From a virus: a stretch of 64,000 nt of DNA. Each line of letters starts with the position of its first letter. Positions within the stretch are counted from its first letter, which is position 1. Positions 33,249 through 63,831 of the stretch are shown one piece after another. The stretch covers positions 32,001-96,000 of IMG/VR virus record IMGVR_UViG_3300031519_006853; one strand, written 5' to 3'. Under the pieces are notes generated by a model. It did not search any database. It worked only from the letters and a program-made list of their open reading frames with translations, and was not told where the DNA came from. The translations under genes and the position numbers were made by a program.

Positions 33249-33254
33249 TAAGAA

Positions 33255-35715: not shown

Positions 35716-36410
35716 AAAGTTTAAAAGATAAGTGGATGACCACATTTTATGGCATGGATTGGTATAAGATAAATTCTATAACTGATCTTGCTAATATACA
35801 AGGACCTGCTCTAATTGAATATGTTATTGATGTTAATAAATATAGAGAAATAGAAAAAGTACAAGAATTAGGCTTTACTTTAGTTGAAACAGATATAGAA
35901 TTTGAAACTTTAATTGATCATGACAGAGGATCTCTCCCTAATATTAGAATAGCAAATGAAAATGATTTAGGAGCTATTTTAGAAATAACAAAGGAGTGTT
36001 ATTCTTCTCATAATAAATTTTATAATAGATTTAGAAACAAATCTTTTTTTACAGAAAAGCAAGCAGAAGATTATTATAAAAATAGTGTTATTAATAATTA
36101 TGAAGGAGAAAATATAATTAAAGTTGTAGTAGAAGATAACGAAGGTATTTGCGCCTATTATATTATAAAGAAACTGGAAAGTCTAGAACTATATGGAAAA
36201 TATAAAGGCATTATTGCAGGAGTATCTGCTAGGGCAAGAGGTAAAAATCTACATGTAGAAATGCAAAACAAAATAACTGAATTAATTAAAGAACCTTATA
36301 TAACAGTAAATAGAACACAATTAGGAAACTATAGAGTAATAGGAAATCATTTAAAAGATAGAAGACAATTATCTAAAATTGAACATTATTTTTATAAAAA
36401 AATAAAATAA
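35712..36410 (+). CDS. GNAT acetyltransferase (WecD/RffC-like)
   Basis: GFTLVET, IRIANENDL.AI, GVSARARGKNL and RTQLGN. Confidence 0.68.
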   Translation: MKSLKDKWMTTFYGMDWYKINSITDLANIQGPALIEYVIDVNKYREIEKVQELGFTLVETDIEFETLIDHDRGSLPNIRIANENDLGAILEITKECYSSHNKFYNRFRNKSFFTEKQAEDYYKNSVINNYEGENIIKVVVEDNEGICAYYIIKKLESLELYGKYKGIIAGVSARARGKNLHVEMQNKITELIKEPYITVNRTQLGNYRVIGNHLKDRRQLSKIEHYFYKKIK

Positions 36411-36412
36411 GT

Positions 36413-37045
36413 ATGCCAATTAAAAAACATAGCCCTTATAAAATAGTAAGTATGTTTGAAGAAGAGCTCTCTGAATATACCGGCGCTAAATATGTAGTAG
36501 CAGTTGACAGCTGCACTAATGCTTTATTTTTAGTTTGTAAGTATTTACAAGTTAAAGAAGTTACTATCCCATCACAAACATATCTTTCAGTTCCTATGAG
36601 CATAATACATGCCGGTGGAAATATAATTTTTGATAAATCAGCAAAATCTAATCATTGGAAAGGCATATATCAATTAAAACCCTATCCTATATATGATGCA
36701 GCAAAAAGATTTACATCTAACATGTATATTAAAGAATCCTTTATGTGTTTATCTTTTCATATTAAAAAATTATTAAATATTGGTAAAGGTGGTGCTATTT
36801 TAACTGATAACAAAGAAGCCTATGAATGGTTTAAAAAAGCAAGGTATGAAGGTAGGAGTGAAAAGTTTTATAAAGAAGACAGTATTGAAACTTTAGGTTG
36901 GAATATGTATATGACTCCACAACAAGCAGCTCACGGTTTATGTTTAATGCAAAATCATCCAATCAACGCAGAAGATCAGGGAGAGCATAATGGTTATCGT
37001 GACTTAACTGAATTTCCAGTTTTTAAAAAATATAAAACTATATAA
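36413..37045 (+). CDS. DegT/DnrJ/EryC1/StrS aminotransferase (short form)
   Basis: FEEEL.EYTGAKYVVAVDSCTNAL, YDAA, SFHIKK...GKGGAILTD and GWNMYM. Confidence 0.85.
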   Translation: MPIKKHSPYKIVSMFEEELSEYTGAKYVVAVDSCTNALFLVCKYLQVKEVTIPSQTYLSVPMSIIHAGGNIIFDKSAKSNHWKGIYQLKPYPIYDAAKRFTSNMYIKESFMCLSFHIKKLLNIGKGGAILTDNKEAYEWFKKARYEGRSEKFYKEDSIETLGWNMYMTPQQAAHGLCLMQNHPINAEDQGEHNGYRDLTEFPVFKKYKTI

Positions 37046-37710
37046 TGGAAGAATCAATTAAAGAATTAATACAAAAAGAAATACAGGCAATAGGAAATAT
37101 ACCTGTTGATTTTAGTTTTGAATTAGCTGTTAATAAAATTAAAATGAAAGTTCATAGTTTAAGTAAGTGTGGAAAGGTTGTAATTTCAGGTATGGGTAAG
37201 GCTGGTCAAATAGGTTTAAACATTTCAACAACCTTATGTTCTACTGGAACTCCTTCTGTTTATTTACATCCTAGTGAAGCACAGCATGGAGACTTAGGAA
37301 TACTTCAACAGAATGATGTTCTTATTCTTTTATCAAACTCTGGTAAGACTAGAGAAATATTAGAATTAATTGAATTATCTAAAAACATGTATCCTCATAT
37401 TAGTATTATCTGTATAACTGGTAAAAAAGATAGCCCATTAGCAAAGGCATCAGATATAGTTTTACACACTGGTGATGCTGATGAAATTTGCCCGCTAGGA
37501 TTAACACCAACAATATCAACAACACTAATGACAGTAATCGGTGATATCTTAGTTGTAGAATTAATGAAGAAGATTAACTTTTCAAAAAAGGAATATTCTA
37601 AAAGACATCATAGTGGTTATTTAGGACAGAAAAGCAAAGAGGACACTAAGCATCCACCAGGAAGTTTGTTAAATGAACTTCCACCAAACGATTATCAAAT
37701 GGGAAATTAA
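37045..37710 (+). CDS. kdsD: Arabinose-5-phosphate isomerase (KdsD/KpsF-type SIS domain, no CBS pair)
   Basis: VVISGMGKAGQIG...STGTPS.YLHPSEAQHGDLG, SNSGKT, CPLGLTPT.ST and HHSG.LG. Confidence 0.88.
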   Translation: MEESIKELIQKEIQAIGNIPVDFSFELAVNKIKMKVHSLSKCGKVVISGMGKAGQIGLNISTTLCSTGTPSVYLHPSEAQHGDLGILQQNDVLILLSNSGKTREILELIELSKNMYPHISIICITGKKDSPLAKASDIVLHTGDADEICPLGLTPTISTTLMTVIGDILVVELMKKINFSKKEYSKRHHSGYLGQKSKEDTKHPPGSLLNELPPNDYQMGN

Positions 37711-38417
37711 TGAAAACAATAATTATTATACCTGCAAGATGGGAATCAACTAGATTACCAGGGAAGCCTTTAGCTATGATTGGTGATAAGCCAATGATAC
37801 AACATACTTGGGAAAGGGCATGCGAATCTAATGCTGATGAGGTTATTATTGCATGTGATAGTAAAATTGTATATGATGCTGCTACTAAATTTGGGGCTAA
37901 AGTTATATGGACTCCTGGTGCAGATACAGGAACTGAAAGAGTAATAGGTGTTCAAAAAATTGAGGCTGCTGATTTTATTATTAATGTTCAAGGCGATGAA
38001 CCCTTTATTAATCCTAATGATATTAATGAAGTAATTAAAATTGTTCATAATCATCCAGATAAAGTAGCAACAATGTCAACAGATTTAACAAGTAATGAAG
38101 GAAAGGATCCTAATGTTGTTAAAGCAATACGAAATGCAATAGGTTTAGTTGGAATGTTTACTAGGAGTTCTATTTACATGAAAACTAATTTTGCATATAA
38201 GCATATTGGTTTATACGGCTATAGTGCTAAAGTACTAAACAAAATATCTGCATTAAAACCTTCAGAAAGTTCTATTAAAGACTCACTAGAGCAATTAACT
38301 TGGATGGACAATAATATACCTATTGTTGCAGGTTGGACATCTTACAAGTCATTAGGCGTTGACACAAAAGAAGATTTAAAAAATGCTAATGACTTTTATA
38401 AAACTATTCATAATTAA
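37710..38417 (+). CDS. kdsB: 3-deoxy-manno-octulosonate cytidylyltransferase (CMP-Kdo synthetase)
   Basis: IIPARWESTRLPGKPL, TGTER, INVQGDEP, HIGLYGY, LEQL.W and GVDT.EDL. Confidence 0.92.
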   Translation: MKTIIIIPARWESTRLPGKPLAMIGDKPMIQHTWERACESNADEVIIACDSKIVYDAATKFGAKVIWTPGADTGTERVIGVQKIEAADFIINVQGDEPFINPNDINEVIKIVHNHPDKVATMSTDLTSNEGKDPNVVKAIRNAIGLVGMFTRSSIYMKTNFAYKHIGLYGYSAKVLNKISALKPSESSIKDSLEQLTWMDNNIPIVAGWTSYKSLGVDTKEDLKNANDFYKTIHN

Positions 38418-38426
38418 TCCATATAA
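38401..38426 (+). promoter_or_regulatory. Putative middle promoter (AAAC-N15-CATATAA)
   Basis: Recurring motif before the GT4 gene. Confidence 0.4.
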
Positions 38427-38450
38427 TAATAAATAATAAGTATACTTTAA

Positions 38451-39458
38451 ATGAAGAGGAAAATAGTATTGTATGGCGGATATTCCGACAATGAGTATAA
38501 TGCAGAAACAGTATATGATACTAAAGGATGCGGTGGTAGTGAAATAGCGTTAATCAAGCTAGCTGAAAATTTAGCCAAAGACAAACGCAATGAAGTTGTA
38601 GTCTCTTCTAGTATGATTATAGAAGGAACATTTAAAGGCATACTTCACCTAAATAAGAAGAGCCTAAATAACTATCTAAATAACAACGAAGTTGACATTG
38701 CTATAGTGTCTAGGTATATCCATTACGTCCTTGATCACAAGTTGGCCAAGAAAAACTATTTATGGCTACATGACTATCAACCTCATTCATGGTGGAATGG
38801 AAAACAATTTAATCCAGAAGTCCTAGGTAATTTGTTTCCTTTATTTGATAAGGTAGTGTGCGTTAGTGATTGGCAAGCAGGTGTTCAAATTAGTAGATAT
38901 GGGGAACATGTCAAAGAGTTTCTAACCACCATACACAACGGAGTCGATCAGTCTAATTTTCCTAAAGAAATAGACACTTCTTTAAAGCAATCTGGTAAAA
39001 TAGTTTTTAATTGCAGAACTAGCGGGCTTCAGAATGCCGTTGACTGGTTTAATGAATACAAAAAACACAATCAAAACGCAGAGCTCCATGTCTTTGCACA
39101 AGAAGCTGGTTTACAACACGTGGCCGGTGACTTGACAGGAGTTTTTGATAGAGGTAGAGTTTCTAATATAGAAATGATAAATGAACTCGTAACCGCTGAG
39201 ATATGGATTAATTCAAGCACAGTGCCTGAAACGTTTTGTATATCTTCAGTAGAAGCTCAGCTTTGCAAGTGCATACCTGTTATAATGCCACAAGCCGGCA
39301 TGTTAGAAATAACACCACATTACAATGATGTAAAAAGTCATAACATTGACTTTACAACTAGACAAATAGAAGAAAACTATAAATCAGCATTAGATTTCAC
39401 ATGGGAACGAAATGCTAAAGAGTTTAATGTGTTAATAAATAAAAAATATAATGTTTAA
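38451..39458 (+). CDS. GT4-family (GT-B) glycosyltransferase
   Basis: GCGGSE, LWLHD, VCVSDWQ, TIHNGVD and ETFCISSVEAQ. Confidence 0.85.
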   Translation: MKRKIVLYGGYSDNEYNAETVYDTKGCGGSEIALIKLAENLAKDKRNEVVVSSSMIIEGTFKGILHLNKKSLNNYLNNNEVDIAIVSRYIHYVLDHKLAKKNYLWLHDYQPHSWWNGKQFNPEVLGNLFPLFDKVVCVSDWQAGVQISRYGEHVKEFLTTIHNGVDQSNFPKEIDTSLKQSGKIVFNCRTSGLQNAVDWFNEYKKHNQNAELHVFAQEAGLQHVAGDLTGVFDRGRVSNIEMINELVTAEIWINSSTVPETFCISSVEAQLCKCIPVIMPQAGMLEITPHYNDVKSHNIDFTTRQIEENYKSALDFTWERNAKEFNVLINKKYNV

Positions 39459-40939: not shown

Positions 40940-41998
40940 ATGGAACATATTAAAGACTACAAATTATTTAAAGAGTCTCTAAATACCGAAGTACTCAATG
41001 AGGCTTTTAGTTCAGGTATCTTAAGAGATTTATCTAGCCAAAGTAGAGGCAAATGGGGTGGCAACTTAGCCAAAGACATGCAAAAATATGCAAGTCTTGC
41101 TCTAGACAAAATTTCGGATTCGGATTTTACTACAACTTCACCAGAAGCTTATTGGAAAGGTGGCGATGCAAAGAACCCTAACAAAATAGGATTCTTTGTT
41201 GATGATGATCCAGGATTTATTAAATGGGCAAAGGCAAACAAAAAATACTTACCAGGAGATTTAACATTAGGTAACATTTCAAAATATGGAATAGTATTAT
41301 CTGTTGTAAGAGGTGGTGCTGGGATGTGGCATGGATTTGCTACTGATAGAGGTGGTTCTTATAGTAGACATAGAAAAGGTACTGAAGAAAGATATGGACT
41401 TCTTGCAAAAGAATATGATACTAACGGAGTTTACAGAGGCTATGAAGGCAAAAATGTTGTTGCTAAAGTAACAAGGAAAAATCTTATTGATATTGCAACT
41501 CGTGTTTATGTATTAGACTTAGATAGTTTAAGAGATAAGTATGATGTAAGCGGTTTAACTAGTGATCGTGCCAATGCTAAATCAGGTGCAACTGCGTTAA
41601 AGGATGCTAAAACTATTAAAAAAGAAAATCAAGCAAGGTATGATGCTATCTTAACCGATAGAGCTGCAATGACTGATGTTGATAAATCAGTTAAAGATTC
41701 TATTGAATTATTAAATCAACATATATCCGATGCATTAAAAGATGGTACTATGGATAAATTTGGAAACCTTACTATTGGTGAAGATCCAAGAGGAAGAAGT
41801 ATTAAGATAACTGATGGCGCTAATTACATTAAAAATCTTTTAGATGATTACCAAAGATATAAGGATTATGAAAGACAAGATAAAGAAGCAAAAGCTGATG
41901 GTAGAGAAGATAACTGGCATGCAAGAGAAATAAAGAATTATGCTAAAAGAATTCAAGATAGAGCTAGAGCAGTAAAGGCTAAAAATTATGCTTGGTAA
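40940..41998 (+). CDS. Putative internal head protein with capsid-targeting leader
   Basis: MEHIKDYKLFKESLNTEVLNE|A leader. Confidence 0.68.
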   Translation: MEHIKDYKLFKESLNTEVLNEAFSSGILRDLSSQSRGKWGGNLAKDMQKYASLALDKISDSDFTTTSPEAYWKGGDAKNPNKIGFFVDDDPGFIKWAKANKKYLPGDLTLGNISKYGIVLSVVRGGAGMWHGFATDRGGSYSRHRKGTEERYGLLAKEYDTNGVYRGYEGKNVVAKVTRKNLIDIATRVYVLDLDSLRDKYDVSGLTSDRANAKSGATALKDAKTIKKENQARYDAILTDRAAMTDVDKSVKDSIELLNQHISDALKDGTMDKFGNLTIGEDPRGRSIKITDGANYIKNLLDDYQRYKDYERQDKEAKADGREDNWHAREIKNYAKRIQDRARAVKAKNYAW

Positions 41999-42000: not shown

Positions 42001-43803
42001 ATGAAACATATAAAAGAATATTTATCATTTAGAGACTCTTTAAATGAAGGACCAGGAAAGGGTTACTATATTGAAGTAGCTGTCCGAGATGCTAGAAAGG
42101 CTTTAGCAATTTTAGATGACATGTATCGTAAGAAGTTTGATATTAATGGAAGTAATGTTTATTACTTTAAGGATGAAGACATGGCATATGATGCTAAGAT
42201 GGATTTAGCAGCCAGAGATATAGAAATTGTTGATACTAATATTGAAGAATCATTAGATGAAAAGGCAGGTCCATGCTGGGATGGTTATAAAATAGGATCT
42301 CCTAAAACAAAGATATCTTCTCAAAGTGGTAAAAGAGTTAATAATTGTGTTCCTATAGATGAAGAAGTTAATGAAAAATTAGCTCGAGGATTAAAACCCT
42401 TATTGAAATTAGGTTCAACTATTACTAAGAAGACTGGTGAAGATGCATTACTAGATTTATCTGATAAGTTTGATAGTATAGATGATGAATATGCTGGAAC
42501 TATAGCAAGCCATTTAGATATGGCTATTGAATTAATGCAAGATGGTTATTCAGGAGATGCTACTAAAAAATTAAAGCAATTTAATAAAGCATGTAAAGAT
42601 GTTCTTAGTGGAAAGGAAGTTGGTTCAGCTTTTGAAAACGTTAATGAAGCAACATATAACTCAAAGAATCATATAGGAGATACTTCTGATGGGCAAGGTT
42701 CTAATGCTGAGATTTATAAAAAAGGAAAAGGATATTATGTAGTTGTTAGTGGAGAAGTTGATTATGATTTTACTGCAAAAAATGACAAAGAGTTATTACA
42801 AAAGTTAAAAGATAATGAATTTGATTCTACTGATATATTAGAAGTTAATGAAGGCAACTTTGATGATATTTTAGATTTAGTTAAATCTTTACATTTTGAA
42901 ATAGATCCTAAGGTTGCTAAGGAAAAGAAAATTGAACTTGGTAAAAGACAAGGCGAATATTCATTAAGAAAACAAATTGAAGGTGGAGAATATTCATTAA
43001 GAAGATTTAGAAAGGAAATTAAATACGACAAAACTGGTAAAGATCTTGGTATATTTAGACCTGGTAGTTATATGGCTGCTACTTCTACAGCAGGAGACGG
43101 TCCACATAGGAAGGCCGTTGCAAAGATTAAATGGAATCAAAAGAAATATGACCAATGGTTAGAAGATGTTGCATCAAATGATGGTTGGAAGAATGCTTTC
43201 GATATGGCACAAAATGCTAAACAAGAACCAGGGTTAATTTCTTGGGTTAAGAAAACGTTTAGAGTTCCTGATCCAATGCAAAGAATACAGTGGGATATTG
43301 AATCATTTGCAGAATCAGTTGATGAATCTGCAATGTCTGAACTTGATATATTAGCAAAGGAGGCAAAAGACTTTAAGGCATTTACAAAAGAAGTATTTAA
43401 AGAATTTAAAAATTTACCAAAAAAGGCAGATACTTTAAAATGGTTAGAAGAATTATATAACGATGCAATAAATGAAGCAGAAAAAGCTGAAGGTGATCGT
43501 AGTAAATTATCAGCTGACATTGAAAAAGCATTAAAGGATAAGGCTACCGAGAGTGGCGTACCTATTGGATTATTAAGATTAGTAATGAGAAGAGGTTTGG
43601 ATGCTTGGAACAGTAGTCATCGTGCAGGTGTACCACAAGTAGCTTGGGGTTATGCTCGTGTAAATGCATTCTTAGAAAAAGGTAAAGGAACTTGGGGTAA
43701 GGCTGATGCTGATATTGCAAAAGAAGTTAGAGATGAAGGCAAGGCTGGTAAACTACCAATTAAAAATCCTTCTGAATTTACCAAAAAAGAAAGAGAAGCA
43801 TAA
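42001..43803 (+). CDS. Putative internal head polyprotein (about 7 modules)
   Basis: Start moved to ATG 42001 (MKHIKEYLSFRDSLNE). Linkers ESLDE, EEVNE, ENVNE, EVNE, ESVDE, AINE. Modules include GPCWDGY...NCVP and ALKDKATESG...GL.AW...HR.G..Q..WGYARVNAF (DUF5824-like). Confidence 0.72.
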   Translation: MKHIKEYLSFRDSLNEGPGKGYYIEVAVRDARKALAILDDMYRKKFDINGSNVYYFKDEDMAYDAKMDLAARDIEIVDTNIEESLDEKAGPCWDGYKIGSPKTKISSQSGKRVNNCVPIDEEVNEKLARGLKPLLKLGSTITKKTGEDALLDLSDKFDSIDDEYAGTIASHLDMAIELMQDGYSGDATKKLKQFNKACKDVLSGKEVGSAFENVNEATYNSKNHIGDTSDGQGSNAEIYKKGKGYYVVVSGEVDYDFTAKNDKELLQKLKDNEFDSTDILEVNEGNFDDILDLVKSLHFEIDPKVAKEKKIELGKRQGEYSLRKQIEGGEYSLRRFRKEIKYDKTGKDLGIFRPGSYMAATSTAGDGPHRKAVAKIKWNQKKYDQWLEDVASNDGWKNAFDMAQNAKQEPGLISWVKKTFRVPDPMQRIQWDIESFAESVDESAMSELDILAKEAKDFKAFTKEVFKEFKNLPKKADTLKWLEELYNDAINEAEKAEGDRSKLSADIEKALKDKATESGVPIGLLRLVMRRGLDAWNSSHRAGVPQVAWGYARVNAFLEKGKGTWGKADADIAKEVRDEGKAGKLPIKNPSEFTKKEREA

Positions 43804-44348
43804 TGAAATTTATAAAAGGCTTTACTGATTTTAAAAATGTATCTGAAGAACTTAAATATCATGTAGATAATGGTATAGGTTTAGATGATAGTGTTTTTCG
43901 TTTAGGATCTGATGCTCATAGTAAATTATTTGAAGAAGCTAAACAATATTGGGATAAAGGAAATCTAGTATTAAAAGGTAAAAGCGGATTTATGGCTAAG
44001 AACCTTGATGTAGGTAAAGAAGCTATTTATAAAGATCGTAAATCAGGCAGAACTAAAAAAGTTAAACTTGATTCACCAGAAAGAGGCGGCAATAGAAAAT
44101 TTATTGTTTATCGTGATGGCGGAAGAACTGATAAAGAAACAGGAAAGATTGTTGCAAAGAAGATTGAATGGGGAGATCCTAACTTATCTGTAAAGAATGA
44201 TGATCCTGGTGCAGCTGCTAGTTTTTGGGCAAGACATCAATGTGATCAAAAGAAAAAGATGGATCCAAATAAAGCAGGCTTTTGGGCATGCTATGGACCA
44301 AGTCTATTTGGAAAGCAATTAGGATTAAAGAGTACTAATCCTTGGTAA
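43803..44348 (+). CDS. Putative internal head protein (DUF6321-like C-terminal domain)
   Basis: MKFIKGFTDFKNVSEE leader; KIEWGDPNL...DDP....SFWARHQC...KAGFWAC. Confidence 0.65.
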   Translation: MKFIKGFTDFKNVSEELKYHVDNGIGLDDSVFRLGSDAHSKLFEEAKQYWDKGNLVLKGKSGFMAKNLDVGKEAIYKDRKSGRTKKVKLDSPERGGNRKFIVYRDGGRTDKETGKIVAKKIEWGDPNLSVKNDDPGAAASFWARHQCDQKKKMDPNKAGFWACYGPSLFGKQLGLKSTNPW

Positions 44349-44350
44349 GT

Positions 44351-44359
44351 AATATATAA
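44351..44359 (+). promoter_or_regulatory. Putative late promoter (AATATATAA)
   Basis: Recurring motif. Confidence 0.48.
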
Positions 44360-44375
44360 AAAAATAATATACACA

Positions 44376-45470
44376 ATGAAACATTTACAAAGAATAGATG
44401 AAGCTGTTGGTACAATCTTAGAAAGAAGAGCTTCGGCCGAATCTTTACTTAAAGGTGTAGCTAAAGGCGATTCAACTGAAGTAGAGGGAATTAAAATGTC
44501 TAAAGATATGGCTGATGCTTATTTAGACTGGTTAAGGTTATCAACTTATGGTAAGAAATTTGGAGCATTACCATTTTATAAATTATTTTCAGCTTCGTTT
44601 AATTGGGGTATAGAAAGATATATTGGTAAAGATTTAAAAGCTGAACTTAAAGAACTTAAAGCCAAGGCTAAATCAATGAAAGAGGCTAACGAGATTAATG
44701 AAAAAACTTCTTTAGGAAAACTTTCAAAGTTAATAGATAAAGCAGTAAAGAAAGCTGATGTTCCATTAAGCTATGCTAGAGAATATATTAGTTCTTTAGA
44801 AGATATGGCAAAAAGAAATTCTAAAAAGTTCTTTAAAGATTATAATAATTTTAGTGAAGATGATTTTATCGAGGATGTTGAATATAACATGGCTAATGAA
44901 AATAAAGTAAATGAAGCTAAAGATTTTGAACCTCATATGATGTATGATCCTGAAACTGGTGATGAATATGAAGCTGAAAAACCAGAAGATCATGAGAGAA
45001 TGGCTAAACTAGGTTATGTTCATGAAAAACCAGAAAGCGTTGATGAGGCTAGGTTTGTAAAAGATTTTAACACGCGTGTTTTGGATGCAAAAACAAAAGA
45101 GGAAGTTTTAAAACTTTATCCAAATGCAGAATTCTTTATTGGTAAATCAGACCACTTCTTTGGAGAATTAGATGCTAACTTATTCTTTAAAGCATATTAT
45201 ACAAAAGGGCAAAAAGAATTTAGAATAAAATCAGTTTATTCTGAGAAAAATAAAAACTATGTTCATTTATTTAATGAATCATTAAATGAAGCCGCTCCTC
45301 GAATAAAAACGAGTAAAGAAGAAGCAAGCTTATTAGATTTAAGAGATCAAGTTAGATATGCACAAAAGGGTGGATCTGCTAGCAGATATGCAAAAGACTT
45401 TGAAAAAGCAAAGAAAAAGGCTTTAAGTGCATTAGGAGATATGATAACATATATAAAAATAGGAGTATAA
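44376..45470 (+). CDS. Putative internal head polyprotein (about 5 modules)
   Basis: MKHLQRIDE leader; linkers EINE, KVNE, ESVDE, ESLNE; module DFEPHMMYDPETG...HERMAKLGYVHE. Confidence 0.7.
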   Translation: MKHLQRIDEAVGTILERRASAESLLKGVAKGDSTEVEGIKMSKDMADAYLDWLRLSTYGKKFGALPFYKLFSASFNWGIERYIGKDLKAELKELKAKAKSMKEANEINEKTSLGKLSKLIDKAVKKADVPLSYAREYISSLEDMAKRNSKKFFKDYNNFSEDDFIEDVEYNMANENKVNEAKDFEPHMMYDPETGDEYEAEKPEDHERMAKLGYVHEKPESVDEARFVKDFNTRVLDAKTKEEVLKLYPNAEFFIGKSDHFFGELDANLFFKAYYTKGQKEFRIKSVYSEKNKNYVHLFNESLNEAAPRIKTSKEEASLLDLRDQVRYAQKGGSASRYAKDFEKAKKKALSALGDMITYIKIGV

Positions 45471-45475: not shown

Positions 45476-46051
45476 ATGAAAAACTTTAGAACATACGGAG
45501 AATTTATTACCGAAGCTTATTCTGATGAAGATAGAAAGGCAATGGCAGAAAAAGGATTTGCCTTATCTGATGGGAGTTTTCCTATCGCTAATTTAGAAGA
45601 TCTTAAGAATGCAATCCAAGCTTACGGTAGAGCAAAGGATCAAGCAAAGGCTGCTAAGTTTATTGTAAAGAGAGCAAAAGCATTAGGTGCTGAAGATCTT
45701 GTTCCTGATACAGATGATTTTCAAAAGTCATTAGATGAAGTTGCTGTTGGGTCTGCTATACATGATGTATCTACTGAGCTTCCTGCTAAAACTATTGCAT
45801 TTCCTGTAGAGGATGATGAAGAAGCAAACGGATCTATTACTGAAGGAACTGATATTGGTTCATGGAATCAAGGCGGACTTAAAGGAAAGGAAAATGTTTT
45901 AATAACTACCTTTGTTGGTCCTAAAGATGTTGAAGATTTTGGCCTAGGTAGAAAATGCATGCAAATAAATGTAGGAATGAAATATGTTTCATTAAATCCT
46001 GCTGATATTGTAGAGTTAAAAGATATTCTTAAATCTTATAAAGTAAAGTAA
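45476..46051 (+). CDS. Putative internal head protein (2-3 modules)
   Basis: MKNFRTYGEFITE|A is the closest match to T4 MKTYQEFIAE. Module DG.FPIAN.EDLKNAIQAYGRA; linkers SLDE and SITE. Confidence 0.75.
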   Translation: MKNFRTYGEFITEAYSDEDRKAMAEKGFALSDGSFPIANLEDLKNAIQAYGRAKDQAKAAKFIVKRAKALGAEDLVPDTDDFQKSLDEVAVGSAIHDVSTELPAKTIAFPVEDDEEANGSITEGTDIGSWNQGGLKGKENVLITTFVGPKDVEDFGLGRKCMQINVGMKYVSLNPADIVELKDILKSYKVK

Positions 46052-46489: not shown

Positions 46490-48514
46490 ATGGGAGAAAT
46501 TTATCCAGAGGAAGAACAACAAGAAAAGAAGCCGAGGTTTAAAAAGCAGACATTAGTGTTAGATACTTATGGTACTAATCTAAGCAAGTCAGCTATAGAA
46601 GGTAAATTAGATCCAGTCATTGGACGAACCGATGAAATACTTAGAGTTATACAAATTCTAGGAAGGCGTAGAAAAAACAATCCAGTTTTGGTTGGTGAAC
46701 CAGGTGTAGGTAAAACTGCAATCGTAGAAGGTTTAGCATTAAAAATGGTAGAAGGAAATGTTCCTGTATCACTACAAGGCAAAATCATTTATACTTTAGA
46801 ATTATCAACAATCGTTGCAGGTACAAAATACCGTGGCCAGTTTGAGGAACGGATGAAAAGTATTGTTGATGAATTAATTCTTAATCCACATATCATTGTT
46901 TTTATTGATGAATTACATACTCTCGTTGGAGCCGGTGGTTCTACAGGATCATTGGATGCATCAAATATTATTAAGCCAGCTTTAGCAAGAGGGGAAATTA
47001 GATGTATAGGTGCAACTACTTTTGATGAATTTAGAGAAAACATTGAAGATGATGGCGCATTAGATAGAAGATTCCAAAAGGTTGTAGTAAATCCTCCAAC
47101 ATTAGAAGAAACAATTGAAATACTTTCAATGATTAGGCATAAGTATGAAGAACACCATAGTGTATCATATTCAGATGAAGTTATTAATTTAATTGTTAAG
47201 CTTGCTGATCGTTATATTATGGATAGGTTCTTTCCTGATAAAGCAGTAGATATATTAGATGAGGTAGGATCTTATAAGCATTTAATTAACATGAAAATTC
47301 CACAAGGGATAAAATCATTAGAAGAAAAATTAGTTCAAAAGGAAAATGCTAAAAGAAAGGCAGTGTCTCGCCAACTTTATGAAGTAGCTGCAAAGGAAAG
47401 AGATGCATGTTTAACCCTTAAAGAAAGAATTAAGCATGATCTTGCTGAATGGAAAGAACAAATGGCAGTTAATCAATTAGAAATAACTGAAGATGATGTA
47501 TTAAAGGTTGTATCTAAATCAACAGGTGTACCGATAGAAAAAATATCTGATAAAGAAAACAAAAATTTATTAGGTCTTAATAAACATCTATCATCTAGAG
47601 TTATAGGACAAGAAGAAGCTGTTAATAAAATAGCAGTAACTGTTCAAAGAAACCGAGTAGGTATTAGAAAAAGAAACCGAACAATGGGTAACTTTATTTT
47701 CTTAGGTCCTACTGGTGTTGGTAAAACTCAATTAGCAAAAGAATTAACAGAATATCTTTTTAATAGTGAAGATTCATTAATTAGAGTTGATATGTCTGAA
47801 TACATGGAACCGCATTCTATTTCTAAATTAATTGGAGCACCTCCTGGTTATGTAGGTTTTGAAGGTGGTGGTTTTTTAACAGAGCAGGTAAAGAGAAAAC
47901 CACATTCAGTTATATTATTTGACGAGATAGAAAAAGCTCATCCAGAGGTCTTTAATGTACTTCTACAAATGTTAGATGATGGGCAGTTAACTGATTCTTT
48001 AGGCAGGACTGTTGATTTTAGAAATTGTTTAGTAATTCTTACATCAAATACAGGATCTAGAAAATTACAAGACTTTGGCCAAGGGATAGGATTTGAAAGT
48101 TCTTCTAAGATGGTTAATCAAGTTGAAGAAGAAAAAACTATTTTAAGAAAGGCTCTTAAAAACAAATTCTCACCAGAATTTTTAAATAGAATTGATGAGG
48201 TTGTAGTATTTAATAGATTAACGGAAGATAATGTAATGGATATTTTAACTAAAGAATGTAAAGAACTTGCATTAAACTTAGAAGAAGTAGGAAATTATAT
48301 TTTTAAAATATCTAAAGGCGCTAAAACAATAATACTTAATCAAGGATATGATCCTAAGTATGGAGCAAGACCTTTACGTAGAACCGTTGAAAGATTAATT
48401 GAAAATAAGATATCTGAATTTATTCTTAAAGGAGATTTAAAAGAAGGTGGTACGATTAATGTTAAAAGTACAAAAGGCGAATTAATAATTGATATAACAA
48501 ACATAAAAGAATAA
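46490..48514 (+). CDS. clpC: ClpC-type AAA+ ATPase lacking the N-terminal Clp-repeat domain
   Basis: [24 protein letters not shown]-like [25 protein letters not shown], ClpP-docking GIGF and GARPLRR. Confidence 0.9.
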
Positions 48515-49182
48515 TGAATTACGGAAAAGAATTTCAGAAGTATGCAATGAGTGATCATAATGTTAGCTCATCTAAGTTAAATTATTATGAGAAGCAAATT
48601 GAATCATCAATGACTCCTTATATTTTAGAGGAGAGAGAATTAAGAGCAACACAAATGGATATCTTTTCAAGGTTAATGATGGATAGATTACTTTGGGTTG
48701 CTGGGCCAGTTAATGATGGTATGTCAACAGTTGTTCAGGCTCAACTAATGTTCCTAGATAGTGTAGAGAAAAAAGATATCACAATGCATATTGATTCTCC
48801 AGGAGGTTCTGTTAAATCAGGACTCTCTATGGTAGATGTTATGGATTATATTAAATCAGATATAAGAACAGTCAATACAGGCATGGCTGCATCTATGGGA
48901 TCAGTTTTACTAGGTGCAGGAACACGGGGTAAAAGAAGTTCACTAAAACATTCAACAACAATGTTACATCAATCATCAGGAGGGTTTAGTGGAAATATAC
49001 AAGATGCTGAAATTGATATGAAAGAATGGAAAAAGATTAATAATACTCTTTTTAAATTACTCGGATCATATTGTGGTAAAAAACCAGAAAAAGTAGCAAA
49101 GGATGCAACTAGAGATTTTTGGTTAAATGCTGAGGAGGCTGTAAAGTACGGAATTATTGATGAGATAATAGGAGTTAAATAA
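48514..49182 (+). CDS. clpP: ATP-dependent Clp protease proteolytic subunit
   Basis: MDIFSRLMMDR, IDSPGGSV, GMAASMG (Ser), MLHQ (His) and TRD (Asp). Confidence 0.96.
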   Translation: MNYGKEFQKYAMSDHNVSSSKLNYYEKQIESSMTPYILEERELRATQMDIFSRLMMDRLLWVAGPVNDGMSTVVQAQLMFLDSVEKKDITMHIDSPGGSVKSGLSMVDVMDYIKSDIRTVNTGMAASMGSVLLGAGTRGKRSSLKHSTTMLHQSSGGFSGNIQDAEIDMKEWKKINNTLFKLLGSYCGKKPEKVAKDATRDFWLNAEEAVKYGIIDEIIGVK

Positions 49183-49234: not shown

Positions 49235-50515
49235 ATGAGCAAAACTATTAACATTGAGGAATGGGATAAGCTTTCAAAAAAGAAACGAAAAGAAGTCACT
49301 AAAATTATATTTACAGGAACTAAAAAAGTAAGTGATGTAAAGGATAGGCCAAGTATGGCTTTTGCTACTATGTGTAAAAACGAGGAGCATTGTATAGGTG
49401 TTACGTTAGCACATGCTGGTAAACATTGTGACTATGTAGTAGTAGCTGATAATGGTTCTACTGATGGTACATTTGATGCAGTAAGAAAATTCTTTGATGA
49501 ATCAGGGTTACCTGGCTCATGGCATGTTGATCCTTGGGATGGTTATGCAATTAATAAAACAAAGATGTTATCTTATGTAAAAGATAAAACTGAATACCTT
49601 TTACATTTAGATGCTGATGATCGTGTTTCTGAGGATTTTTATTTTACTCATTCAGATGCTGGGAGCGATTACTATATTATGACAATGCATCGTGGAAACT
49701 CTACATGGAAAGCTACAGTAGTTTATAAAAATGATCTTGTATGGAGATTTTTAGGAACTGCTCATACAATTGTTAAAGCTGATAAAGAAAATTTAATTCA
49801 AGGAGATCTTAGTGAAAGAGGATATTGTAATTGTGATGGGATTGGATCACGTGCATTTGACCCTAGGAAATATTGGTATGATGGTGAAAGGTTAACAAAA
49901 CAATTTTGGGATTGTTTAGCAGATGATCCTGAAGGTTTATTAACAAGATCTGCGTTTTATGCAGGCCAGAGTTATATGGATTACCGAGTAGACGGTTGCA
50001 CAGAAAAAGCTTTACAATGGTATAGGTTATTTTTAAAATTTAAAGATACTTGGATTGAAGAACAGTTTGAAGCTCAGATGAGATTAAGTAGAATCATAAT
50101 GAGATTAGAAGATCATGAAGACAGGTTCTATGAAATTAAAAATGAAATGGATAAAGCAATTGCTATATTTGGTGATAGGGCTGAGCCTTATTATTTCTTT
50201 GGAGAATATTGCTGCAAACAAAATAGACATGATTTAGCATACGAATATTTAAAGAAAGCAACAGAATGCAACTTAGACCATGCTGAAAGTAATTATAATT
50301 TATTTGTTAATAGAACAGTTTATGGTATTCATATTAATGATTGGCTTTCTGTAGCATGTTATTGGACAAACCGAGTAGAAGAAGGTAAAAGTTATATAAA
50401 TGAAATTTTAGAAAATGCTGATCATTGTAAAACATTTAAAAACTCACTCCCTCATTATAAAAGAAATTTAGAACATTTTAATAATTTAGAAAAACGGTTA
50501 AATAATGAAAACTAG
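49235..50515 (+). CDS. GT2 glycosyltransferase with TPR-like C-terminus
   Basis: MCKNEE, VADNGSTDGT, LHLDADD; FYAGQSY...A.QWY...RAEPYY TPR-like helices. Confidence 0.82.
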   Translation: MSKTINIEEWDKLSKKKRKEVTKIIFTGTKKVSDVKDRPSMAFATMCKNEEHCIGVTLAHAGKHCDYVVVADNGSTDGTFDAVRKFFDESGLPGSWHVDPWDGYAINKTKMLSYVKDKTEYLLHLDADDRVSEDFYFTHSDAGSDYYIMTMHRGNSTWKATVVYKNDLVWRFLGTAHTIVKADKENLIQGDLSERGYCNCDGIGSRAFDPRKYWYDGERLTKQFWDCLADDPEGLLTRSAFYAGQSYMDYRVDGCTEKALQWYRLFLKFKDTWIEEQFEAQMRLSRIIMRLEDHEDRFYEIKNEMDKAIAIFGDRAEPYYFFGEYCCKQNRHDLAYEYLKKATECNLDHAESNYNLFVNRTVYGIHINDWLSVACYWTNRVEEGKSYINEILENADHCKTFKNSLPHYKRNLEHFNNLEKRLNNEN

Positions 50516-51314
50516 ATCTCAATTAACTTCAGGCTTTTCTTTAAGTTTACATGATACGTATATAAAGGCAAAGCCTTATCCACATATTTCTATCGATAAT
50601 TTTATACCTATTGAGGATATAAGATTATGTGTTAATGAAATGAAAAACTTTCCAAACTGGGGATATGATAAAGGTAATGAGCATTTCCAAAACAAAAAAT
50701 ACTTTTATCCTTGGCGTGAAATTGAAACTATCTTAGGTCCTACTAGCGATATCGCTGATACTGTTGAAACACTTTCAACTAAGGCCCCTGTATGCTGGAA
50801 GTGGCTTAGCTATTTTAATTCAGAAGATTTTATTAAAATTTTAGAAAACTTAACTGGAATAAAAGATCTTATGCCAGATCTAGGTTTTTCAGGTGGTGGT
50901 ATGCATATGATACAATCAGGTGGAAAATTATCAATTCATAGTGATTTTAACAAACATCCTTATGGTTTAGGTTGGAGAAGAATTAATTTATTAGTTTATT
51001 TAAATGAAGATTGGCAAAAAGAATGGGGTGGAACTTTACAGATTTGGAATAAAGATATGTCTGAAATGGTTTCTGAATTTCAACCGTATGCAGGTAAAGC
51101 TATTATTTTTAATACAACTGATGATGCACTACATGGTCACCCTGACCCTCTAAATTCACCAGAATACATAGCACGGCATTCATTTGCATTATATTATTTT
51201 ACTAAAGATAGACCCGAGCATGAAAAATCAGATTTTATTGGTGCCCAATGGTATGACAAAGGAAATCCGTTAAGTGTACAAGAACAAGAAAATAGAGAAC
51301 AACAAAATGCATAA
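50505..51314 (+). CDS. 2OG-Fe(II) oxygenase
   Basis: PYPHI.IDNF, IHSDFN (HxD), WGG.L.IW, LHGH and RHS.A.YY. Confidence 0.88.
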   Translation: MKTRSQLTSGFSLSLHDTYIKAKPYPHISIDNFIPIEDIRLCVNEMKNFPNWGYDKGNEHFQNKKYFYPWREIETILGPTSDIADTVETLSTKAPVCWKWLSYFNSEDFIKILENLTGIKDLMPDLGFSGGGMHMIQSGGKLSIHSDFNKHPYGLGWRRINLLVYLNEDWQKEWGGTLQIWNKDMSEMVSEFQPYAGKAIIFNTTDDALHGHPDPLNSPEYIARHSFALYYFTKDRPEHEKSDFIGAQWYDKGNPLSVQEQENREQQNA

Positions 51315-52551
51315 AGTAGATAAATTAATTATAGGAGGCGGTATTACTGGATTATCAACAGCCGCCTTTTTAGGAAAAGATTCAGATTACTTAGTTCTTG
51401 AAGGTGCAAATGAATTAGGTGGGTATTGTAAAACTACCAAAAGAAATGGATTTGTTTGGGATTACAGTGGGCATTTCTTTCATTTTAGGAATGATGAAAT
51501 AAAAAAGTATATGATGTCAGAAATGGCATGTGAAGTTGTAACAGTTAAAAAAATAACAGATATAGATTATAAGGGTACTGTTATAGATTTTCCTTTTCAA
51601 TATAACGTTCATCAATTACCAAAGAAAGATTTCTTAGAATGTTTAAGAGACATGTATTACTTAGGTGATATAGACAATGAAAATTTTAAATCATTTGTAA
51701 ATTCTACATCAGGTAAAGCAATTGCTGAAAAATTTCTAATACCTTACAATGAAAAATTATATGCATGTGATCTTAATAAATTAGATGCAGATGCAATGGG
51801 TAGATTTTTTCCAAAGCCAATTAAGTTTGATGAACTTATGGAAAAGATAACAGTTCCTAATGATTATGAATCTTATAATGGAACATTCATTTATCCAGTA
51901 GACGGTAGCTTTGAATTTATTAAATCTATATTAAAACGAGTAGATGAAAATAAAATATGGTTAAATTCCAAAGCTAATAAAATTGACTCTAATAAAAAAA
52001 TAGTTTATACAGATAAAGGGGAAGTTCATTATAATACTTTAATTAGTACAATGCCATTCAATAAAATATTACCTATGGTTTCAGATAATTCTACTTCAGA
52101 ATTATCATCAAATAAAGTAGCAGTATTTAATTTAGGTTTTGATAAAGGTACGGATATAAAAACTCACTGGAGATATTTCCCTGGTAATGAAATATTTTAT
52201 CGTATAGGTTTTTATAATAATATACTAGGTACAGATAAATTAAGCTTATATGTAGAGGTTGGCGCAAAGAGTAATGAACTATTAGAAGAGAAAGTATTAT
52301 TAAATCAAATTCTAAAAGATCTTAAACAAAATGGTATAATAACAGATCATAATTTAATAGATCATCAATTTATTGTTATGGATCCTGCTTATGTTCATAT
52401 AACTACAGAGAGCGAAAAAACTTATAAAACATTTTGTAAAGATTTTAATAAAAAAGGAATATATTCTATTGGAAGGTATGGGTCATGGACTTATTGTTCT
52501 ATTGAAGATAATATTATACAAGCAAAAGAATTAATTAATAAAATTAAATAA
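51307..52551 (+). CDS. FAD-dependent oxidoreductase (UDP-galactopyranose mutase / protoporphyrinogen oxidase-like)
   Basis: IIGGGITGLS, GGYCKT...WDYSGHFFH and GRYGSWTY. Start moved to ATG 51307. Confidence 0.78.
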   Translation: MHKVDKLIIGGGITGLSTAAFLGKDSDYLVLEGANELGGYCKTTKRNGFVWDYSGHFFHFRNDEIKKYMMSEMACEVVTVKKITDIDYKGTVIDFPFQYNVHQLPKKDFLECLRDMYYLGDIDNENFKSFVNSTSGKAIAEKFLIPYNEKLYACDLNKLDADAMGRFFPKPIKFDELMEKITVPNDYESYNGTFIYPVDGSFEFIKSILKRVDENKIWLNSKANKIDSNKKIVYTDKGEVHYNTLISTMPFNKILPMVSDNSTSELSSNKVAVFNLGFDKGTDIKTHWRYFPGNEIFYRIGFYNNILGTDKLSLYVEVGAKSNELLEEKVLLNQILKDLKQNGIITDHNLIDHQFIVMDPAYVHITTESEKTYKTFCKDFNKKGIYSIGRYGSWTYCSIEDNIIQAKELINKIK

Positions 52552-52552
52552 T

Positions 52553-52936: not shown

Positions 52937-53012
52937 TGATTAAAAAATTAATATTCTTAATAAGACTTAAGCTTGCAAAAAGAAAAAGAAAATCAGTATG
53001 GGATCTGTAATT

Positions 53013-53597: not shown

Positions 53598-53598
53598 C

Positions 53599-53826: not shown

Positions 53827-53827
53827 G

Positions 53828-60486: not shown

Positions 60487-61389
60487 ATGAAATATATTAA
60501 AAGTTTAGATGAAAACTTTATAACCGAAGGGGCTGAATTAAATGAAGCAGTAAATGCATCAGGATATCTCAAAGCCGGTAAATTAGGTGTCAATGACCAA
60601 TTCTTAGGAAGAAGGTCTTTAGCGTGGACATTATCAGTTGATCTAGGATTAAAAGCAACTGATGAATATGTTGGCCCATGGTTAGGATTTGATCATGTAT
60701 CAATGTATGCTATTGGTAAAAAAGGAGGAACTATTTTAGATAATGCGTTAACTAATAAATATACTTATGAAGAATTAAAAGCAGCTGCTGCAAAATTTTT
60801 AGGTATTAAAGAATCTGTTGATGTTAATGAAGCTGTGTCTAGATCTGATAAAGCAGTTAAAGATTTAGAAAAGCAAGGTTCTCAAATTGATTACTTAGAA
60901 GATGCTGATTCTGAAACTAAAAAGATTTGGAAAAAGTCTGGTGTTAATACTGATGATGAAAATACAATCATTCTTTATTCTTATGTTAACGACTCATGGC
61001 CTGAAACTAAAAAGATATTAAAAAAACACAGTGTAGATTTTAAAGAGTTAGAAGATCCTAATTCTGCTGGTGAATCTTTTATTGTATTTGTAAATGAATC
61101 AATTGATCTTAATGAAGCAAAGAAATTTAAACCAGGAGATATGTGGTCAAATGATTTTGACTATGATGGTATGATGAAGTATGCTCTAACTGTAAATCAT
61201 AAGACTCCAATTAAAACCCTTACTAAATTACATGATTCAGCAACCGATGTAAATTATCATACTCCTTTTAGAGGTTTAGGTAATGCAATTGATTGGATAA
61301 CTGATGATGGTGTTAATTCACAAGAAGGTAAAGACTTTATGAAACAATTTCATAATGATATTAAGGCTGAAATAAAAACAATGAGGTAA
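60487..61389 (+). CDS. Putative internal head polyprotein (3 modules)
   Basis: MKYIKSLDENFITEGAELNE|A leader; linkers ESVDVNE|A and ESIDLNE|A. Confidence 0.72.
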   Translation: MKYIKSLDENFITEGAELNEAVNASGYLKAGKLGVNDQFLGRRSLAWTLSVDLGLKATDEYVGPWLGFDHVSMYAIGKKGGTILDNALTNKYTYEELKAAAAKFLGIKESVDVNEAVSRSDKAVKDLEKQGSQIDYLEDADSETKKIWKKSGVNTDDENTIILYSYVNDSWPETKKILKKHSVDFKELEDPNSAGESFIVFVNESIDLNEAKKFKPGDMWSNDFDYDGMMKYALTVNHKTPIKTLTKLHDSATDVNYHTPFRGLGNAIDWITDDGVNSQEGKDFMKQFHNDIKAEIKTMR

Positions 61390-63074
61390 TGAAATATATT
61401 AAATTATTTGAAAAATTTACCAAGGAATACCAAAGTAAGATAGACCTTAAAGATTTTAAGAAAATCAAAAAAGGATCTATGATTCAATATATGGGCGGTG
61501 CCGTTGAGGTTGTAGATAATAATGGCTATGTATTAAAATTAAAAGATGATGACGGTAAAATCTTTACTGTTAATAAATCCCAATTTGATCATGGCGGTAG
61601 AATATCAGAAGTGTCTGATGGAAAGAAAAAGGAAAAGGAAGAAGAATTCCATCCTGATATGATGTATGAAGCTGAAAAATATATTACTAGTAAATATAAA
61701 ATAGGTGATAAAATTAAAACAGGATTTGGTGAATGGGAAGTAATTGAAACGGACTATGCACCTAACAAGAGTTTTATAGGTTCATTTATATTTAAAGGAA
61801 AGGATATGAAAAGAGTAAACATACCTAATCCTCCTAAGACTAATAAGAATGCAGTAGGTTATAAAGTTACTGATGGTGACAAATATCCTATTATAGGTTT
61901 CTTATATCAATATAAAGATATAACTAAACTTGCAACTGTTGGTGTTGATGAATCAGTTAATGAATTAAAAAGAACATTAGTATCTGGTACAATGTCTGGT
62001 TCTACACAATCTTTAGAAGATAGAAAATATGAATTAAAGAAAGATGCTAAAGGCGCTACTATTGGAAACTTTTCAAATGTAACACTCCCTAAAGGAACTA
62101 TTATTTATAATTTACCCGGTGGAGTATTTGCTGATCATTTTTCTCTAAAGAACAAATATGCAAGCAGATCATCACAAGGCCCACAATATTTTGATAAACC
62201 AACCTTTAAAGGTATAATGATTAAACAAACACCTGCTGTCTTATCATACATTGAAAAGAACAGTAAAGTTTTAGAATCATTTGATACAGAAATAGTTAAC
62301 GAAGCTAGTGATCAACAAAGATTAACTCATTTAAGAAAATTTGGAATTGCACCTAATAACCAACCACAGAATGGTGCTTATATAAAACAAGTAGCAAAAC
62401 CTGGAAAATTCTTCGTGGATTGGAAAGATGCTTTTGATCTAGGTGATGTTGCATTAGAGTTTGTAAAATCTGTAGGTAGTATTTCTGAGTTTGATATTAT
62501 TGATCTTAAAACAATGAAACGCACAGGTGAACAATTAGATGTTAAGAAAGGTCAATTAGGAAATTTAAGAACTACTTACGGTGTTAGAGTTAATGAATCA
62601 GTGGAATTAGATGAAGCCGCAAAACCTTATAAGAAAGGGCAGAGAGTTGATTATCAATTAGATCATAAAGGTGGAGTTGGTAAATTTGCTGATGCAATGT
62701 CAAAATCTAAAAACATTGAATCTGGAGTTATTAAAAAAAGAACTAAAGGATTTGCTGGTACTTTTAAATATGAACTTACTAGTGGTCTAGAATTATACGG
62801 TTCTGAGATTGTAGGTTTAACTGAATCTTCATCTAAAGACGGTGGAGATAAGTCAAATGGTAACTCTCATCATGATGATCATACTGATAATACAGTAGCA
62901 CAACATTGGAAAGATATTTATGGAGAAGAATTCCATTCAAAATATCCAGCAGTTGCTAAAATTATTAAACAAAGAAACATTAAAGATAAAAGAGAACTAA
63001 GTAGAATATGGGATGAAACTTATGGTGAAAACTTTGAAGAGCAATATCCTGCATTATACAATAAATTAGATTAA
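61389..63074 (+). CDS. Putative internal head polyprotein (about 6 modules)
   Basis: MKYIKLFEKF leader; linkers RISE, ESVNE, EIVNE, ESVELDE and GLTE. Last module is a tandem W..(I/T)YGE.F...YPA repeat. Confidence 0.72.
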   Translation: MKYIKLFEKFTKEYQSKIDLKDFKKIKKGSMIQYMGGAVEVVDNNGYVLKLKDDDGKIFTVNKSQFDHGGRISEVSDGKKKEKEEEFHPDMMYEAEKYITSKYKIGDKIKTGFGEWEVIETDYAPNKSFIGSFIFKGKDMKRVNIPNPPKTNKNAVGYKVTDGDKYPIIGFLYQYKDITKLATVGVDESVNELKRTLVSGTMSGSTQSLEDRKYELKKDAKGATIGNFSNVTLPKGTIIYNLPGGVFADHFSLKNKYASRSSQGPQYFDKPTFKGIMIKQTPAVLSYIEKNSKVLESFDTEIVNEASDQQRLTHLRKFGIAPNNQPQNGAYIKQVAKPGKFFVDWKDAFDLGDVALEFVKSVGSISEFDIIDLKTMKRTGEQLDVKKGQLGNLRTTYGVRVNESVELDEAAKPYKKGQRVDYQLDHKGGVGKFADAMSKSKNIESGVIKKRTKGFAGTFKYELTSGLELYGSEIVGLTESSSKDGGDKSNGNSHHDDHTDNTVAQHWKDIYGEEFHSKYPAVAKIIKQRNIKDKRELSRIWDETYGENFEEQYPALYNKLD

Positions 63075-63078
63075 AGCT

Positions 63079-63831
63079 ATGAAACATATTAAAACATTTG
63101 ATTCTATTAATGAAGCTAAAAGAGCTGGTCTTTCTAAAGAAGAAACTCTAAAAGTGGCACAGAAATTTGCAAAAGCTTTATCAAAAGTAGATGGTGTAAA
63201 GGTTACAGTTAGTAAAGGTCATGAAGAAGATTCATTTGATTTAGATTATGATGGTGAAGAATACGATGGTGGTTCATATAATATTAATGATGATGGTTCA
63301 GTAGTTAATATGGCAGTTAGACATCCTAAAACAAAAGTATCACCAACTTATGGTAACATTGATGATGATGTTGCTACAATTATAAAGACTATTAAGAAGT
63401 TACCTAAGATGTTAGGTGAAGGTACTGTTATTGATTTAAGATTAGTTAATGAAAATGTTAATGATGAAATTGAAATGGCATTAACTAACTGGTTAAATAC
63501 TTTAGCTGATGGCGATCCTGTTAAAGTTACAGATCTTTATTTAGACAACGGTGTTTTACTAGGAACAGTTGCTGAAGATATTAAACAAGGACATACTGAA
63601 ATATTATCTTATTTTGAAATGTTCGTAACTAAAAATCCTATAGGAAGTGTAGATACTTTTATTTTACAAAACTTTGGTGATGTATGTATCTCTGATGGTA
63701 CTTATACATTTGAATTAGATGGAGAAGATGGCCAAAGAACTTCTGTAGCTGCAAGATACACGTATGTTTGGAAAAAAGAAAATGATAAGTGGATGATCGC
63801 AACTCACCATTCATCTGTTAATCCTAAATAA
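63079..63831 (+). CDS. Capsid-leader protein with C-terminal SnoaL/COG4875 (iota carbonic anhydrase-like) domain
   Basis: MKHIKTFDSINE|A; LVNENVNDE linker; W.N.L..GDP.KV..LY...GVL.GT...YF..F...G.YTF...ARYTYV.......W.I..HHSS.NP. Confidence 0.75.
   Translation: MKHIKTFDSINEAKRAGLSKEETLKVAQKFAKALSKVDGVKVTVSKGHEEDSFDLDYDGEEYDGGSYNINDDGSVVNMAVRHPKTKVSPTYGNIDDDVATIIKTIKKLPKMLGEGTVIDLRLVNENVNDEIEMALTNWLNTLADGDPVKVTDLYLDNGVLLGTVAEDIKQGHTEILSYFEMFVTKNPIGSVDTFILQNFGDVCISDGTYTFELDGEDGQRTSVAARYTYVWKKENDKWMIATHHSSVNPK

Follow-up and report, generated by a model that had tools for sequence, protein, structure and literature searches.

Two open reading frames (ORFs) at 42001-43803 and 44376-45470 were found to be strings of small modules joined at [VLI]-[N/T/D]-E linkers. 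They lie in a 64,000-nt window, bases 32001-96000 of the virus record IMGVR_UViG_3300031519_006853 (181.7 kb, estimated completeness 65%). The ORFs are referred to as polyproteins A and B, and coordinates are those of the window unless marked as genome. Genes for a portal (T4-like), a gp23 capsid protein and a Peptidase_S77 protease are present in the genome. The late-type genes of the cluster begin with an N-terminal leader resembling those of T4, behind which small independent modules are joined by the linker. With a probability of about 0.75, the comparative evidence points to a cargo polyprotein that would be matured by the head protease and shuffled by recombination.

The ten linker motifs reported in a preliminary description of this DNA were all present where it had placed them: ESLDE (42247), EEVNE (42361), ENVNE (42634), EVNE (42841), ESVDE (43312) and AINE (43465) in polyprotein A, and EINE (44691), KVNE (44904), ESVDE (45033) and ESLNE (45276) in polyprotein B. 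The PCW and HMMYDPETG motifs were located at 42271 and 44934, respectively. A further site, PIDE (ending at 42363), had been overlooked, and only 4 of the 10 sites follow the form ES[VLI][ND]E under which they had been described. The consensus linker of the family is (E-S-V)-[VLI]-[N/T/D]-E with [A/S/G/K] behind the Glu. The division into blocks was correct, and the blocks measured 34-158 aa instead of the proposed ~30-140 aa.

The two ORFs contain 11 internal [VLI][ND]E sites compared with a shuffle mean of 1.96 (p 2e-4). In the record, ~21 ORFs start with a leader whose end is aliphatic-x-Glu. The suggested genome-wide count, in which the set of leader-bearing ORFs was chosen partly by eye from the N-termini, gave 6.0 and 2.6 [VLI][ND]E sites per 1000 aa in leader-bearing and other ORFs, respectively (Fisher 5e-5), and bore out the higher frequency that had been predicted. 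With the pattern E.?[VLI][ND]E the corresponding values were 2.5 and 0.3 (1e-7). Beyond residue 25, the leader-bearing ORFs hold 36 [VLI][ND]E sites versus 12 in shuffles. No overall enrichment of the generic [VLI]xE was detected in the leader-bearing ORFs; therefore, only the N/T/D subclass marks the joints.

Judged by alignments with related loci, the linker sites are true module boundaries. The related loci align to the focal proteins in blocks only, and for 51 of 98 internal alignment ends each of the two proteins had a site no more than 7 aa away, the expected number being 2.4. Among 220 dereplicated proteins, 429 of the 786 breakpoints determined without the motif were near a site (null 112), and the commonest tripeptides at these breakpoints were ESV, SVV, VTE, VVT and VNE. 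Cutting at the sites resulted in 1034 segments of 480 families, with a median length of ~80 aa for the recurrent ones. Each focal gene has 5-7 independently mobile modules; module B4, for instance, was found with 10 upstream and 10 downstream neighbours. The relatives carry up to 12 or more modules per protein, and one protein of more than 1300 aa has 16 sites. Indels of whole modules were detected between syntenic strains that are 92-100% identical in the common modules. Modules A4 and A5 are missing in L185 and L188, A1 and A2 are missing in L186, and an additional module is present between A5 and A6 in L187. Genes B and C form one ORF in L186 and L187.

The same design, with ESVNE- and ESLNE-type joints, was found in gp079 (841 aa, six internal sites) of the cultured Flavobacterium phage vB_FspM_immuto_2-6A; gp077 and gp071 of this phage and gp20 of phage Melnitz are further candidates. 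In gp18 of the Methylophilales phage Melnitz and gp130 of the Pelagibacter phage HTVC008M, a DUF5824-like block is located behind aliphatic-x-Glu sites; in Melnitz gp18 a PCW block similar to module A2 precedes it and also stands behind such a site. No such module strings were observed in the compared region of the Tenacibaculum phage pT24. The DUF5824 match of polyprotein A covers residues 511-571 (E 7e-9), and the A8-like block is C-terminal to a cytidyltransferase in HTVC008M. The claim that some modules recur as stand-alone proteins held for the DUF5824-like module, and the 158-aa module A6 has to be added, whereas PCW and HMMYDP occurred exclusively as parts of other fusions. Module A4 (67% identical) occurs without linkers inside a protein of 2774 aa from a small virus record (L061:859-9183), and no gp21 homologue was found in that record (39 kb, 71% complete; one case). 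The linker-free copy suggests that modules may travel between unrelated phage groups.

The linker is very probably a joint of DNA recombination as well. The preliminary description had recognized the modular architecture and the match with the leader ends and had missed this second role. The codons of the linker are homogenized beyond context-matched (dipeptide) controls: the fraction of TCA among Ser codons was 0.69 versus 0.30, and that of GTA among Val codons 0.94 versus 0.44. This homogenization at silent sites marks the linker also as a recombination joint. All 124 near-matches to the 18-nt consensus were on the + strand of the loci, and 114 of the 118 frame-testable near-matches are open only in the frame in which the peptide is read. 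The crossover of the A4+A5 indel is inside a 13-nt identity that was found at both ends of the missing segment (Table 1). Short-homology recombination between linkers would explain the in-frame shuffling. The consensus linker DNA includes a 6-bp interrupted palindrome, TCAGTA-GT-TACTGA (in related loci, e.g. L041:4468-8412), which is disrupted in the Asn variants of the linker. A site-specific recombinase is not proposed, since every second copy has the palindrome disrupted.

At the protein level, the linker has a role as well. It is indicated by the constraint on P1 and P3, by the avoidance of aliphatic-x-Glu inside modules, which a DNA-only model does not predict, by the occurrence of the motif in recognized substrates of gp21-type proteases, by the difference in aromatic residues between leaders and internal sites and, as a single case, by the linker-free A4 copy in the record in which no gp21 homologue was found. 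Among 120 linkers picked by DNA likeness alone, P1 was Glu in 119 and P3 was aliphatic in 117, with P2 and P4 varying. Sites are confined to the joints and avoided inside the modules. Using one member from each of 334 module families, the observed-to-expected ratio of aliphatic-x-Glu with other middle residues was 0.86 in module interiors (confidence interval 0.77-0.96) compared with 1.30 (1.20-1.40) in the other genes of the phage. No avoidance of [VLI]xD/Q/K, [FYW]xE or other spacings was detected in the interiors. The avoidance points to selection by a Glu-specific protease, for which the genome has a candidate. The phage protease (PF03420, E 6e-16) aligns to T4 gp21 (5JBL), and His72, Ser128 and Asp149 are conserved at the expected motifs. 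In T4, gp21 removes the gp23 propeptide and the leaders of the internal proteins (IPs) (PMC9958956), and Alt is cut at ITE-6 and LTE-619 (PMC5694885). In the gp23 of the present phage, three sites were located in the first 46 aa and are retained in nearly all homologues shown. The density of sites per 100 aa was 4.8 in the first 60 aa of gp23, 0.22 in its mature part and 0.05 in the portal. The sites in the gp23 propeptide and the protease core use varied codons. The protease gene itself (L001:6183-7904; genome 18182-19903; protease domain at about residues 1-170) is fused to a repetitive core-like region of ~400 aa with ESINE sites, and the fusion is kept in ~49 relatives. The polyproteins would probably be cut at most of their linkers. 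As for the earlier proposal of cargo matured by the prohead protease, the linker, the leader end and the protease rule agree in the comparative tests, and the gp21-type protease is the putative agent of cleavage.

The claim that the linkers match the cleavage end of the leaders was supported by comparative tests. The geometry of the T4 capsid-targeting sequence (CTS), with aromatic residues at 4 and 7, an aliphatic one at 8 and Glu at 10, is exact in paralogues at genome 168440 and 177704, and the leader of A is longer (Y7, F10, Glu16). An aromatic P4 was found in 26 of 61 leaders versus 67 of 892 internal sites, and an aromatic P7 in 31 of 61 versus 125 of 892. These are the positions which T4 uses for targeting (PMC9026906). 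The lack of aromatic P4 and P7 at internal sites, together with 22 distinct complete leaders inside the proteins of relatives, suggests that the linkers descend from the leaders of fused genes. Many relatives bearing A6 (L028, L020, L015) have, in place of the usual leader, a DUF3008-like module or an acidic one rich in Gly and Met, and these N-termini are possibly alternative targeting signals. The upstream AATATATAA-type motif of genes B and C is common to the portal, protease, sheath and tube genes, and 25 of 38 copies of ATATATAA were within 70 nt of a gene start. Several cultured actinophages have C1 in fusion with capsid maturation proteases or the portal, which would represent an independent route into the head. 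The polyproteins would very probably be packaged in the head. Another group of leader-bearing proteins is encoded at L004:8236-15664 (genome 174235-181663); it comprises an acidic 577-aa, a 423-aa, a 933-aa and a cytidylyltransferase-like protein, the 423-aa and 933-aa ones being without family assignment. They are candidates for single-enzyme head cargo.

According to the proposed mechanism, the leader would load the entire string into the prohead core, where the gp21-type serine protease, cutting behind the Glu of aliphatic-x-Glu, would remove the leader and cut every linker. The freed proteins of 4-18 kDa would remain in the head, and some or all of them may be ejected with the DNA and, like IPI and Alt of T4, affect the host at an early stage of infection. 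The linker would be the tail of a leader in which the cleavage residues P3 and P1 were kept and the aromatic targeting residues P4 and P7 were lost. As the sequences show, modules are inserted, deleted and swapped by recombination within the short, near-identical linker DNA. The linker would thereby double as protease site and shuffling joint, giving a reconfigurable payload with one loading tag.

Several results weigh against this mechanism. About 45% of the breakpoints are away from any strict site. The leader of B is without the aromatic residues of the T4 CTS, and the strict leader pattern, which misses some real leaders, was found in only 87 of 213 related proteins. The homogenized linker codons mean that part of the motif conservation has a DNA-level cause, and the compared gp23 sequences are closely related and, therefore, not independent observations. 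In phage SPN3US, every identified cut takes off a terminal propeptide, and the majority of the head proteins stay uncut (PMC10052503).

An unlikely alternative, although the strongest of those considered, is that the products are packaged as mostly uncut multidomain proteins which lose only the N-terminal leader, the linker being a relic of fused leaders that is kept as recombination microhomology. The silent-site homogenization, the 13-nt crossover identity and the complete leaders inside the proteins of relatives would be expected from it. Neither the interior avoidance of aliphatic-x-Glu nor the constraint on P1 and P3 with free P2 and P4 is predicted by it, and by the T4 precedent an exposed inter-domain aliphatic-x-Glu in the prohead should be cut (PMC9958956).

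Regarding the folds of the modules, the expectation that structure prediction would reveal independent domains was borne out for A6, which alone was predicted with confidence as a helical domain (predicted local distance difference test score, pLDDT, 88; predicted template modelling score 0.73), whereas a single-sequence model of the entire 600-aa protein yielded no information (pLDDT 37.5). When A6 is C-terminal, it ends just ahead of the linker, and many stand-alone leader-bearing A6 genes were found. With the A6 model as query, no clear match was obtained in PDB (best Z 5.0, root-mean-square deviation 2.4, 52 residues aligned), no E was below 0.001 in a viral structure library and template modelling scores in the Atlas were at most 0.34, which is no proof of a new fold. 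The ESM Atlas feature searches with A6 and B4 resulted only in unnamed viral clusters below 0.8. The annotated domains of the modules are DUF5824 (A8), SnoaL/CaMKII-AD (63079-63831) and DUF3008 (in relatives), with almost no others. The SnoaL/CaMKII association-domain fold (E 3.5e-17) forms the end of the last gene of the second cluster, directly behind a VNE site. No zincin MPTase, MuF, ART, ParB or LPD families were detected in the Pfam and PHROG scans, which covered the proteins of the window and over 20 related polyproteins, and the domain scan gave no peptidase match in polyproteins A, B or C.

These properties also bear on a reading in which the strings are an accessory scaffold or core filler that is destroyed by the protease like T4 gp22, gp67 and gp68, with the pieces leaving the head or serving purely in its structure or in the packing of DNA. 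In its favour, the motif recurs along the core part of the gp21 fusion and in the acidic 577-aa leader protein, and the core proteins of T4 have many cleavage sites (PMC9958956). In contrast, the modules of 50-160 aa show 70-99% conservation across unrelated contexts, and sites are avoided in their interiors. A compact fold was predicted for one of them and another has the SnoaL/CaMKII-AD fold, and hundreds of module families are a better fit to an arms race than to a scaffold; this reading is, therefore, improbable. That the modules are host-directed effectors ejected from the head is about evenly balanced; it is suggested by the analogy to IPI and Alt (PMC12373910) and by the module diversity. 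Equally poised is the broader proposal that large T4-like phages possess a cassette system built on a short sequence that doubles as head-protease cleavage site and recombination joint. Through it, hundreds of small uncharacterized families would be exchanged into polyproteins loaded into the capsid, freed as individual proteins and injected with the genome as an integron-like anti-host or anti-defence library prepared in advance.

Clp ATPase and ClpP genes are located at 46490-49182, directly behind the cargo cluster, and are kept in syntenic strains. ClpP degrades processively and cuts without a Glu-specific rule. Their vicinity would favour ordinary cytoplasmic accessory proteins that are cut by a host protease or the phage ClpP (48514-49182), or are uncut, and are never packaged, which is highly improbable, as the linkers agree with the leader ends and with the sites of the gp23 propeptide, the upstream motif is common to cargo and structural genes, and ClpP has no such rule. 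The cluster is flanked by long gene runs (27521-39458, 49235-56639) resembling sugar-nucleotide and glycosyltransferase enzymes, and the gene content upstream of it differs among the close strains L185-L187. Among deposited phage records, those with the nearest capsid proteins include Lak and Tenacibaculum phages. A Shine-Dalgarno sequence was detected at only 2 of 128 gene starts, and the gene starts are A-rich; therefore, the host is likely a member of Bacteroidota. The sigma-70 and terminator scans gave results at chance level. The features of the clusters are presented in Table 1.

Table 1. Leader-bearing modular genes of the window and their parts.
Feature	Position	Strand	Basis or remark
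352-aa leader-bearing gene, head of cluster; single module, no internal site past residue 21	40940..41998	+	Family seen with 7 different modules ahead of it
Leader of polyprotein A, capsid-targeting-like, end SLNE	42001..42048	+	T4 CTS rules in PMC9026906
Module A1, 71 aa, end ESLDE	42049..42261	+	Missing with A2 in strain L186
Module A2, 34 aa, PCW...NCVP, two Cys; then tandem sites PIDE, EVNE	42262..42375	+	Alignment blocks, motif positions
13-nt linker identity, left crossover point of A4+A5 indel	42363..42375	+	Strains L185, L188
Module A4, 91 aa	42376..42648	+	12 copies, 9 upstream and 10 downstream neighbours
Module A5, 68 aa	42649..42852	+	Alignment blocks, strain comparison
13-nt linker identity, right crossover point of A4+A5 indel	42840..42852	+	Strain comparison
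Module A6, 158 aa, predicted all-helical	42853..43326	+	109 copies, 55 upstream and 61 downstream neighbours, in a sequence set partly collected with A6 as bait
Module A7, 50 aa	43327..43476	+	13 copies; 9 and 7 neighbours
Module A8, DUF5824-like	43477..43803	+	Profile match; also stand-alone
181-aa leader-bearing single-module gene	43803..44348	+	Homologous block fused at the end of Melnitz gp18
Late-promoter-like AATATATAAA (putative function)	44351..44360	+	Common to portal, protease, sheath, tube genes
Polyprotein B; short leader, IDE end at residue 9	44376..45470	+	Alignment blocks, strain comparison
Module B1	44403..44702	+	
Module B2	44703..44915	+	
Module B3 (HMMYDP)	44916..45047	+	
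Module B4	45048..45290	+	
Module B5	45291..45467	+	
Polyprotein C; leader and three blocks	45476..46051	+	In-frame fusion to gene B in L186, L187
Second cluster of leader-bearing modular genes (300, 561, 250 aa)	60487..63831	+	Modules exchanged with A, B, C in relatives

If the proposed mechanism is correct, the injected proteome of large aquatic T4-like phages far exceeds what gene counts indicate; the 480 segment families came from one small sample, and nearly all are without a Pfam or PHROG match. The linker would then provide a rule for splitting 'hypothetical proteins' into the mature units that screens for anti-defence activity and searches by structure require. It would also offer a natural design by which multiple proteins could enter a T4-type capsid with one tag, and a mechanism for the rapid in-frame exchange of payload.

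No description of such a system was found in a literature search whose coverage did not extend to most subscription papers or to the phiKZ and 201phi2-1 proteomics. In RNA viruses, one ORF gives rise to many proteins by cleavage of a polyprotein at a recurring motif. There the protease lies inside the polyprotein and the order is fixed, whereas here it has a morphogenesis gene of its own, and the strains differ in module order and content. The preliminary description had known of no precedent in tailed phages, which agrees with the search, but related ideas exist in the T4 capsid-targeting sequence and in the polyvalent proteins (PMC5512222). The likeness to T4 IPI-IPIII and Alt (PMC9026906, PMC9958956, PMC5694885, PMC12373910) includes the T4-type portal, capsid and protease, the variable small cargo and the short N-terminal leader ending in aliphatic-x-Glu, Alt being cut at ITE and LTE. 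In contrast, the T4 cargo consists of single proteins losing terminal propeptides only, whereas in the present system up to 12 or more modules follow one leader, and each joint is both a site and a recombination point. In phiKZ and SPN3US (PMC10052503, PMC9026906), a Glu-specific prohead protease likewise cuts many internal head proteins at repeated sites, but these sites are in discarded propeptides and not between retained modules, and the motif is A/S-x-E. The T4 scaffold core proteins gp22, gp67 and gp68 are degraded to small peptides at sites spread through the protein body, unlike the present sites, which are confined to joints. The polyvalent proteins (Iyer et al. 2017, PMC5512222) are similar in having many unrelated domains, 2-15 disparate ones in shuffled order, and a predicted packaging in the virion; the authors themselves draw the analogy with polyproteins, and the same shuffled order of modules was found here. 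Their hallmark domains MPTase, MuF, ART and ParB were not detected here, nor was a self-processing peptidase, embedded in a subset of them, detected in A, B or C, and a stereotyped linker at every joint, read in trans by the head protease, is not among the features described in the part of the paper available. The system would operate in the manner of the T4 CTS/gp21 cargo and is akin to the polyvalent proteins, but it lacks some defining features of each.

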